A stretch of DNA of 64,000 nucleotides from NCBI RefSeq assembly GCF_056746865.1, contig NZ_CM163382.1. One strand, 5' to 3'. Made by a program: the position numbers and the translations under genes. Below the pieces are notes generated by a model. The model saw nothing but the letters and a program-made list of their open reading frames with translations, made no database searches and was not told where the DNA came from. This document shows positions 17,046 to 33,303 of the stretch, in pieces. How positions within the stretch are numbered: position 1 is the stretch's first letter; every line of letters begins with the position of its first letter.

Positions 17046-17879
17046 TTAACGCATATTCAGTTTATTGGCGTGATAGGCAATATGCTCGCCAATAAAACTG
17101 GAGACAAAATAATAGCTGTGATCATAACCCTCGTGATAACGGATTAACGTCTTGATATTCATCTCCTGGCAGATCTTTTCAAGATTTGGAGTCCGCAGCT
17201 GTTCTGCGTAAAAATCATCACTCAACCCCTGATCAACCATGATTTCCGCAACGCGTTGACCTTGTGAAATAAGGCTCACCGGGTCGTAATCCAACCAGGC
17301 TTCTTTATTTTCACCAAGATATGCGGTAAAGGCTTGCTGTCCCCACGGTACTTGCGATGGGGAGACAATGGGCGAAAACGCTGAGACGCTGACATATTCA
17401 TCTGGATTACGTAACGCCAGCACCAGTGCGCCCAGCCCGCCCATAGAATGACCTGAGATAGACTTTCTGGCCGTTGCCGGAAAATGTTGCATCACTAAAT
17501 CCGGCAGCTCGTTGCGGATATAGTCATACATTTTGTAATGTTCATTCCACGGCGCTTGCGTTGCGTTCAGGTAAAACCCGGCACCTTGCCCGAGATCGTA
17601 ACGGTCAGCATCTGCGACATGACTGCCTCGCGGACTGGTGTCCGGCGCAACAACAATAATGTTGTGCTCAGCCGCGTAACGTTGCATCCCCGATTTAGTA
17701 ATGAAATTCTGCTCGTTGCAAGTCAGCCCTGAAAGCCAGTACAACACCGGCAATTTTTCACTTGCGGCTTTTGGTGGGAGATAGACGCCGACATTCATTT
17801 CACATTTCAGTGATGGGGAATAATGCCGATACACATTTTGCCAGCCGCCAAAGCTGGCATGTTTTTCAATGAGTTCCAT
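17046..17879 (-). CDS. frmB: S-formylglutathione hydrolase
   Basis: 277 aa esterase with GHSMGG motif; downstream of frmA. Confidence 0.9.
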   Translation of the reverse strand: MELIEKHASFGGWQNVYRHYSPSLKCEMNVGVYLPPKAASEKLPVLYWLSGLTCNEQNFITKSGMQRYAAEHNIIVVAPDTSPRGSHVADADRYDLGQGAGFYLNATQAPWNEHYKMYDYIRNELPDLVMQHFPATARKSISGHSMGGLGALVLALRNPDEYVSVSAFSPIVSPSQVPWGQQAFTAYLGENKEAWLDYDPVSLISQGQRVAEIMVDQGLSDDFYAEQLRTPNLEKICQEMNIKTLIRYHEGYDHSYYFVSSFIGEHIAYHANKLNMR

Positions 17880-17970: not shown

Positions 17971-19110
<1,140 letters not shown>

Positions 19111-19114
19111 TCAG

Positions 19115-19390
19115 CTATTTAAGATAGGCACGAACCAGTTCAATAGTGTCGTCAACGGATTGGCTGACTTCGCGGCTGTAGCAGTCATTTCGGTCAAACG
19201 TTTCCCGGATATGGCTTTCAAGCACTTCTGCCATCAGCCCGTTAGCCGCGCCCCGAACGGCAGCGATCTGTTGGAGTATGGCACGGCATTCGGCATCACC
19301 CTCCAGCGACCGTTCCAGAGCATCAATCTGCCCCCGAATACGACGAACTCGAGTAAGGACCTTTTTCTTCTCTTCCGGAGTACTGGGCAT
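19115..19390 (-). CDS. frmR: formaldehyde-responsive repressor (CsoR/RcnR family)
   Basis: [29 protein letters not shown], 91 aa; first gene of frmRAB. Confidence 0.9.
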
Positions 19391-19416
19391 TTCGCACCTC
19401 ATCATCTGCACGCAAT

Positions 19417-19465
19417 ATACTATAGGGGGGTATGCTATATGTCAATGCATACCCCCCTATAGTAT
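19417..19465. promoter_or_regulatory. probable FrmR operator in the frmR promoter region
   Basis: atactatagggggg ... cccccctatagtat inverted repeat (TACT-G6 / C6-AGTA type, as for RcnR/FrmR family sites) immediately upstream of frmR. Confidence 0.65.
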
Positions 19466-19577
19466 ATAACACTGGAGAATAAAATTTATCCGGTGAATGT
19501 GGTCGGAAAACAAAGAGGAAAGGGGGTGGGGCTAATCGGCAGGGAAGGCCGCCCCGGATAGCGGGCGGCAGAAGCAA

Positions 19578-20351
19578 TCAGAATTTCCAGGTCAGATGGG
19601 CTGCAAGTTGCAGACCGTTATAATCATCGGTTGGGGTGTCGTACCACACTTTACCTGCCGTCAGCCCGAGATTAAGTTGCTCAGTCAGCGGTTGAATACG
19701 TTGCAAACTGACGCTCTTCATGCTGCCGTAGCGTGTTTCTGGCGTCCAGTCATAGGTGTAAGCACCTGTTCCGCGGCTTAGCCATAGTTGCGTATAACCA
19801 GTGCCGCGCGGGTCATTCAGACGCACGGAAATCATATTGCTGTAACTACCACCTGCATCGCTGGAGTCATAATGGGTATAGCGGTAGCTGGAGATCACCG
19901 GGCCAGTATAGAGTGATACGCCGCCTTGCCAGGCATCGACTTCGACATCATCGTAATATTTAGTGTAGCGATAACCGGTCGTGAAAAGCGTTTTTGGCAA
20001 CAGTGCCAGGTTAATATCCTGACGAAAATCCTGGCGGGCAAAGACCGGCGTATTATCCGCAAAGGCAATACCCATTCGGGTTGTCAGCCAGTTATTCCAT
20101 TTATACCAGACCGCACCCTGACCGCGAGTGGCATTGAAATGTTCAGTTTCATAATCACGACGCCCCTGGGAAAGATTAAAAAGCAGCGTTGCGTTTTCAA
20201 CTTTCGCCACCAGTTCAGCATACGCTAAATTACGGTTGCCATGATCGCCAGAATAATCGGTAAAATCGTAGCCCGCGGTAATGGAAGTTAACCCGGCATA
20301 AGCGGGCAATGTGCTAAAAATTGCTGCCGCTAATAACGTCCGTTTTATCAT
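19578..20351 (-). CDS. yaiO: outer membrane beta-barrel protein YaiO
   Basis: 257 aa; signal peptide MIKRTLLAAAIFSTLPAYA; aromatic-rich, ends TWKF. Confidence 0.85.
   Translation of the reverse strand: MIKRTLLAAAIFSTLPAYAGLTSITAGYDFTDYSGDHGNRNLAYAELVAKVENATLLFNLSQGRRDYETEHFNATRGQGAVWYKWNNWLTTRMGIAFADNTPVFARQDFRQDINLALLPKTLFTTGYRYTKYYDDVEVDAWQGGVSLYTGPVISSYRYTHYDSSDAGGSYSNMISVRLNDPRGTGYTQLWLSRGTGAYTYDWTPETRYGSMKSVSLQRIQPLTEQLNLGLTAGKVWYDTPTDDYNGLQLAAHLTWKF

Positions 20352-32620: not shown

Positions 32621-33303
<683 letters not shown>

Follow-up and report, generated by a model that had tools for sequence, protein, structure and literature searches.

A perfect palindrome between yaiO and frmR of Escherichia coli as the very probable FrmR operator around the frmRAB promoter

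The yaiO-frmR intergenic region of Escherichia coli contains a long perfect palindrome that is very probably the operator of the repressor FrmR, laid out around the frmRAB promoter and acting by steric repression that formaldehyde relieves. Each arm of the palindrome is a complete CsoR/RcnR type 1 site, and the two sites are inverted. Both the feature and this interpretation have already been published. The anatomy of the palindrome, the match of the promoter to consensus and the conservation of the dyad come from the present analysis, and FrmR binding, its release and its repression in vitro and in vivo are taken from the literature; from these we infer where transcription starts, which contacts FrmR makes and in what stoichiometry it binds the two-site E. 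coli DNA. The original prediction that the repeat is the FrmR operator agrees with the published work and with the comparative analysis described here. The features discussed are listed below, in coordinates of the window, the whole 64-kb stretch of DNA (64,000 nucleotides) that was analysed.

19415-19467, unstranded: the whole palindrome, 53 bp, with 21-nt arms (19415-19435 and 19447-19467) and an 11-nt spacer (19436-19446)
19417-19433, unstranded: FrmR site nearest frmR, ATAC-N9-GTAT, reading ATACCCCCCTATAGTAT on the frmR strand; assigned from the dyad match, its conservation, identity with the Salmonella probe and PMC5146963
19449-19465, unstranded: FrmR site further from frmR, ATAC-N9-GTAT, reading ATACTATAGGGGGGTAT on the frmR strand; assigned from the dyad match, an alignment of 12 promoters and PMC5146963
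19440-19445, minus strand: -35 hexamer TTGACA of Pfrm, from the promoter scan, within the palindrome spacer; its TTG is invariant in 12 two-site promoters
19417-19422, minus strand: -10 hexamer TAGTAT, from the promoter scan, in the outer half-site of the site nearest frmR; TATAGTAT is invariant in the 12-promoter alignment
19409-19413, minus strand: predicted transcription start zone, placed from the promoter hexamers; the 'centre at -29' of Denby et al. (PMC5146963) implies about 19412
19396-19400, minus strand: frmR Shine-Dalgarno sequence GAGGT, read in the sequence and kept in most of the 12 aligned promoters
19115-19390, minus strand: frmR coding sequence, 91 aa plus stop, a CsoR/RcnR-family formaldehyde-responsive repressor (NF008464 equivalog, RefSeq annotation)
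17971-19080, minus strand: frmA, S-(hydroxymethyl)glutathione dehydrogenase (TIGR02818, 743 bits), a co-transcribed target
17046-17879, minus strand: frmB, S-formylglutathione hydrolase (TIGR02821, 398 bits), a co-transcribed target

The genes yaiO, frmR, frmA and frmB all lie on the minus strand. FrmR scores 189 bits against the NCBIfam equivalog NF008464, for which the cut-off is 133, an unambiguous identification. The upstream gene, identified as YaiO by NCBIfam, occupies 19578-20351 on the same strand, 110 nt upstream of the palindrome, so that the repeat does lie between frmR and yaiO as had been proposed. A 501-nt query around the palindrome finds matches, annotated frmR / yaiO, in 5415 of 5426 complete E. 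coli genomes, at a median of one place per genome (highest 2) and in a fixed position. A 98-aa open reading frame beginning with GTG at 19411 was considered as the start of frmR and rejected, as RefSeq and the 91-aa NCBIfam model favour the ATG at 19390. In the Shine-Dalgarno sequence preceding that ATG, the second G and the T of GAGGT are invariant among the 12 aligned two-site promoters. Just after the yaiO stop codon, the minus strand carries a GC-rich hairpin, GCCGCCC-N8-GGGCGGC (approximately 19546-19567), which is without a U-run and was not called as a terminator.

On the plus strand, positions 19417-19465 read ATACTATAGGGGGGTATGCTATATGTCAATGCATACCCCCCTATAGTAT. This stretch had been described as a pair of 14-nt arms around a 21-nt spacer, which is correct, yet represents only part of the repeat. 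A repeat finder and our own scan give perfect arms of 21 nt, ATATACTATAGGGGGGTATGC (19415-19435) and GCATACCCCCCTATAGTATAT (19447-19467), separated by an 11-nt spacer, TATATGTCAAT, that is not palindromic. Beyond the 14-nt arms, two further bases pair on each outer side. The partial palindromy attributed to the longer spacer (tatgc...gcata) reflects a pairing that exists, but these bases simply continue the arms. The distance to the frmR start, given as 27 bp, is borne out when counted from 19417 to the RefSeq start at 19390 (19417 minus 19390 = 27); from the end of the full palindrome to the ATG, it is 24 nt.

With loops of up to 30 nt allowed, no other perfect inverted repeat in the 64-kb window is as long as this palindrome, the runner-up having arms of 13 nt. 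Twenty shuffled versions of the window yielded longest arms of 9-13 nt, never more than 13, and the analytic chance expectation for arms of at least 21 nt in a 64-kb window is 4.5e-7. The palindrome is real and not a chance event. Of the six G6/C6 runs in the window, two fall within it, one per arm, the G6 at 19425-19430 and the C6 at 19452-19457. The runner-up, at window positions 32633-32662 (TAATGCCCGTCAA / TTGACGGGCATTA, 13-nt arms, 4-nt loop), may be a terminator or a protein-binding site.

The dyad ATAC-N9-GTAT has two matches in the 64-kb window, one in each arm of the palindrome. A promoter scan of 19300-19650 returned a sole sigma-70-like site, on the frmR strand, which matches the consensus at 10 of 12 positions and has a 17-nt spacer. 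The FrmR site nearest frmR spans this promoter spacer and the -10 hexamer, and the far site lies immediately upstream of the -35. The centres of the two sites are 32 bp apart, equivalent to 3.05 helical turns, with the sites in inverted orientation on either side of the -35. The predicted start at approximately 19409-19413 is consistent with the -29 centring of Denby et al. to within 2-3 nt. The presence of the promoter hexamers inside the palindrome had been missed in the original prediction.

Type 1 sites and the RcnR box were defined by Iwig and Chivers (2009), and the definitions, restated in PMC3902906, are matched by the K-12 rcnR-rcnA sites. The frm sites show three of the type 1 characters: one G/C tract of 3-8 bp, without interruption, in every site (G6 and C6), half-site dyads flanking the tract (ATAC-N9-GTAT in each arm), and a location at the promoter of a DUF156 (CsoR/RcnR-family) repressor gene, with the hexamers inside the palindrome and the FrmR equivalog downstream. 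Counted as 5-nt half-sites, the dyad leaves a 7-nt gap in each frm site. The repeat had been read as the TACT-G6 / C6-AGTA architecture of CsoR/RcnR repressors, which names the right family but joins half-sites that belong to different arms and lie about 40 bp from each other. In the K-12 rcnR-rcnA intergenic region, read directly as TACTGGGGGGTAGTA-tcagg-TACTGGGGGGGAGTA, TACT and AGTA flank each site's own G-tract. The RcnR box, with TACT and AGTA around one G6 within 15 bp, is not found in the frm arm, which reads TACT-ATAGGGG-GGTA.

Like the frm operator, the E. coli rcnR-rcnA operator is of type 1: two sites in tandem at the promoter of a gene for a DUF156 repressor, each with a G/C tract between TACT/AGTA-like half-sites that are separated by 7 nt (PMC3902906). 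The RcnR sites, however, are direct repeats placed 20 bp start to start (approximately 1.9 turns) with a G6-7 run filling the core, whereas the frm sites are inverted, 32 bp apart (approximately 3.05 turns), have an asymmetric core of a C-tract plus TATA, and flank the -35. CsoR type 2 operators, such as ATATACCCCTNAGGGGTATAT of Streptomyces (PMC3902906), share with frm the TAC/GTA anchor dyads 9 bp apart, the G/C tracts and recognition by a tetrameric DUF156 repressor. They differ in having two short G/C tracts split by 2-4 bases in each site, where the frm arm has one uninterrupted tract.

Much of the functional evidence comes from a study of E. coli Pfrm, in which the same inverted repeat was described as tandem type I FrmR sites centred at approximately -29 (Denby et al., 2016; Sci Rep 6:38879, PMC5146963). 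The sites were given as ATAC/GTAT repeats around 9-bp G/C-rich cores with centres 31 bp apart (32 by the coordinates used here), and there is no substantive difference between that feature and the palindrome. The Kd of EcFrmR for a PCR fragment of Pfrm is ∼220 nM, and formaldehyde releases the protein from this DNA; EcFrmR specifically represses Pfrm during in-vitro transcription, and a stop codon in frmR renders Pfrm constitutive (PMC5146963). These observations support the earlier suggestion that frmRAB is autoregulated by FrmR. The site assignment in that study came from sequence inspection and modelling, and the transcription start was described as 'predicted' (PMC5146963); no nucleotide-resolution footprint of E. 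coli FrmR on Pfrm was found in the literature examined. To this account, the present analysis adds the exact extent of the palindrome (21+11+21), the placement of the -35 and -10 inside it, its conservation across species and its polymorphism within E. coli. As a discovery it adds little, this being the textbook-level operator of a well-studied detoxification operon and a widely used formaldehyde biosensor part.

The Salmonella operator provides a second line of biochemical evidence. A 33-bp frmRA operator-promoter probe, TTCTGATAGTATACCCCCCTATAGTATATGGAG, binds two FrmR tetramers with a KDNA of ∼1e-7 M (Osman et al., 2015/2016; PMC4528141, PMC5016687), and mutation of one T/A-rich half-site abolishes FrmR binding to it (PMC5016687). 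The E. coli and Salmonella promoters were aligned in Fig. 2D of that work, where G/C tracts and inverted repeats are marked (PMC4528141, PMC5016687). The Salmonella operator-promoter (frmRAPro) resembles that of E. coli in being bound by FrmR and in having a C6 tract with T/A-rich inverted repeats, and the 17-mer ATACCCCCCTATAGTAT of the near arm in E. coli occurs identically in the probe. The probe nevertheless contains a single 17-bp site on 33 bp and still takes up two tetramers, while E. coli has two sites in a larger palindrome. Salmonella and E. coli FrmR are 52% identical, and the FrmR subgroup is reportedly polyphyletic (PMC5016687). Because the proteins are only 52% identical, binding to the Salmonella 17-mer constitutes support rather than proof for the E. 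coli site.

Synthetic promoters point in the same direction. In a 2024 biosensor study, ATACN9GTAT sites placed upstream of the -35 and in the spacer of J23100 gave FrmR-dependent repression (PMC11127321). Repression was reportedly lost from a shortened Pfrm in which both sites were retained and DNA upstream of them had been removed (PMC11127321), and the operator may thus also depend on sequence beyond the upstream end of the palindrome.

In the model with the strongest support, steric repression, FrmR tetramers would sit on both sites when formaldehyde is absent, the one at the near site covering the promoter spacer and the -10, and the one at the far site abutting the -35. With both sites occupied, RNA polymerase would be excluded and frmR, frmA and frmB would be repressed; because frmR is the first gene of the repressed operon, it would be negatively autoregulated. 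Formaldehyde cross-links Pro2 to Cys35 of FrmR and remodels its DNA-binding face, upon which the protein dissociates and the operon is transcribed. An arrangement in which one tetramer using both faces, or a pair of tetramers, traps the -35 in a loop or wrap, or in which a cruciform formed under supercoiling tunes the promoter, is considered unlikely; some room is left for looping or wrapping because of the truncated-Pfrm report (PMC11127321), the 3-turn spacing and the suggestion by Denby et al. that both faces are used (PMC5146963). The symmetry extends beyond the 17-bp dyads by two extra pairs on each side, and together with the 3.05-turn distance between centres this is possibly not incidental.

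Conservation of the dyad was assessed in a comparative set in which one genome per species was scanned, giving 80 loci with FrmR relatives of 52-100% identity from Escherichia, other Enterobacterales, Aeromonas, Pasteurellaceae, Betaproteobacteria, Xanthomonadales and many Alphaproteobacteria. A frmA homologue lies directly downstream of frmR on the same strand at 75 of the 80 loci. At 65 of them, the 120 nt upstream of frmR include an exact ATAC-N9-GTAT; the set takes in many close relatives, including Brucella/Ochrobactrum genomes, the 65 nearest sites representing 48 distinct 25-mers. The dyad is found at 8.65 per kb in these upstream regions compared with 0.0126 per kb over the other 395 kb of these loci, an enrichment of ∼690-fold, and it is placed alike relative to frmR in three classes of Proteobacteria. 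For the 65 loci, the near-site consensus, ATACTCCCCTATAGTATAT, corresponds to TACT-N7-AGTA, thus having the half-sites and spacing of the RcnR box, but an asymmetric core in which a C-tract is followed by TAT. The E. coli site departs from this consensus by one difference, T5 to C, and owes its C6 run to this change, which joins the C of ATAC to CCCC.

The number of sites varies with lineage. A pair of sites, 32-35 bp apart around a TTGAC-like -35, is present in Escherichia, Pantoea, Edwardsiella, Providencia, Morganella, Serratia, Erwinia, Aeromonas and Deefgea; in most Alpha- and Betaproteobacteria there is just one. The second site, and with it the large palindrome, is limited to some lineages. 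Where two sites occur, their cores are mostly inverted, with 5-9 of 9 positions matching. In Erwinia endophytica (L016:2411-2506), the dyads flank the -35 as in E. coli and the cores are direct (7/9), matching at only 2/9 positions when inverted; a two-site operator can therefore do without the large palindrome.

Alignment of 12 two-site promoters indicates which positions matter. The invariant columns comprise ATACT...GTAT, the TTG of the -35, ATAC...TATAGTAT, part of the Shine-Dalgarno sequence, and ATG-CCC, which encodes Met-Pro, Pro2 being the formaldehyde-sensing residue. No column of the G/C tract is invariant, and the weight that had been placed on the G6/C6 tracts as the determinant is not sustained. 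Many of the relatives that keep the dyad have GTGGAG/CTCCAC in place of homopolymeric G6/C6, and others have TCCCC or further variants, the tract being G/C-rich in most loci and not a conserved homopolymer. The GTGGAG/CTCCAC loci (L008, L010 and L018) still form perfect palindromes, with arms of 18-21 nt and a 17-nt spacer. It is the ATAC/GTAT half-sites with 9-bp spacing, not the G6/C6 runs, that define a FrmR site. This definition may be of modest use in annotating frm operators, including the plasmid-borne ones now common in clinical Enterobacterales, and in designing FrmR-controlled synthetic promoters.

Several loci in the comparative set have features of their own. The GTGGAG/CTCCAC version is represented by plasmid 1 of Edwardsiella anguillarum (L008:2400-2780). 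The Edwardsiella segment holding the promoter and frmR has matches on 487 plasmids, with an identity of at least 99% on 223; the plasmids are mostly conjugative and occur mainly in Klebsiella and Enterobacter, and also in Citrobacter, Escherichia and Salmonella. The plasmid GTGGAG form is a mobile formaldehyde-resistance operon with its own operator variant. A FrmR that is 91% identical is found, without a neighbouring frmA, in a Citrobacter freundii MAG, Klebsiella grimontii and Maribrevibacterium harenarium (L006, L009 and L011); after a gap of ∼700 nt these loci contain a 383-aa ORF with no homology to frmA or frmB at 1e-20, and their far site has 10-nt instead of 9-nt spacing. The near-identical upstream sequence in a marine Oceanospirillales genome and in enterics suggests transfer or contamination. 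In a Lysobacter sp. MAG (L035), a perfect inverted repeat with 28-nt arms, GGTGGAGTAAGCGCAGCGCAACTCCACC, and a 25-nt loop lies ∼160 to 80 nt upstream of frmR and is unrelated in sequence to the FrmR dyad.

The palindrome could also act as RNA, with a hairpin in yaiO read-through transcripts terminating or attenuating transcription, or stabilising the 3' end of the yaiO mRNA, and FrmR binding being secondary. The location of yaiO on the same strand, only 110 nt upstream, fits this reading, as does the predicted read-through RNA, in which the palindrome forms a perfect hairpin (z-score -4.35 for a 211-nt region). Nevertheless, a terminator scan gave no terminator-like site in the region, the base of the stem is rich in A and T, AUUGCGUGCAG and not a U-run comes after the hairpin, and the predicted frmR transcript begins downstream of the palindrome. 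Conservation, moreover, tracks the ATAC/GTAT half-sites of each arm and not the pairing of one arm with the other: the Erwinia sites are direct, and most Alpha- and Betaproteobacteria have a single site without a long hairpin. A role as RNA is thus very unlikely. An intrinsic (Rho-independent) terminator was rejected as a candidate, the scan being empty and the stem being followed by ATTGCGTGCAG in place of a T-run. A search of 19000-20000 against Rfam 15 in E-value mode returned only eukaryotic miRNA-precursor models, at 20-27 bits compared with gathering thresholds of 73-139.

Two further explanations concern the partner of the palindrome as DNA. Binding mainly by another regulator, or cross-talk from RcnR, with FrmR acting elsewhere in Pfrm, draws on the TACT/AGTA half-sites and 7-nt gap common to the RcnR box and on the 68 bits that FrmR scores against the RcnR model. 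It is extremely unlikely given that the cores differ (TACT-G6-N-AGTA in direct orientation 20 bp apart for RcnR; C4-6 plus TAT(A), inverted and 32 bp apart, for frm), that inactivation of frmR alone makes Pfrm constitutive (PMC5146963) and that, from species to species, the dyad accompanies frmR-frmA operons. The idea that the palindrome is what is left of a repetitive or mobile element (a REP, a MITE or the terminal inverted repeat of an IS), or that it is a chance or structural (cruciform) palindrome with no specific protein partner, is scarcely credible. Such elements do typically have long perfect palindromes, and cruciform extrusion is physically plausible, the arms folding as single-stranded DNA at -21.5 kcal/mol (z-score -7.4). 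Against this stand the fixed position in E. coli genomes, with a median copy number of one, the absence of the dyad elsewhere in the window, its constant position relative to frmR across three Proteobacteria classes, and the published FrmR binding and repression. The many dispersed copies per genome expected of REP or MITE elements were not seen, the highest count being 2 places per E. coli genome.

As the FrmR operator, the palindrome varies to some extent within E. coli. A 100-nt query matches at 99% identity or more in 3480 of 5416 E. coli records. Eight variants of 19361-19520 (L081-L088), a small sample taken down the ranking, were aligned, and the ATAC and GTAT half-sites are intact in all eight. 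Variant H21 has G7 in place of G6, H28 has TTGGCA in place of the -35 TTGACA, and H35 has a C to T change within the C6 tract of the far site. H33 and H38 are changed at 19434, a G just outside the dyad, and one spacer change was seen among the eight. The spread of these variants implies that the perfect 21-nt symmetry belongs to the common allele and is not strictly required. Polymorphisms in the operator-promoter could alter basal frmRAB expression between strains. Upstream of the palindrome, within 19468-19577, H38 additionally carries a deletion of ∼20 nt and a G9 run.
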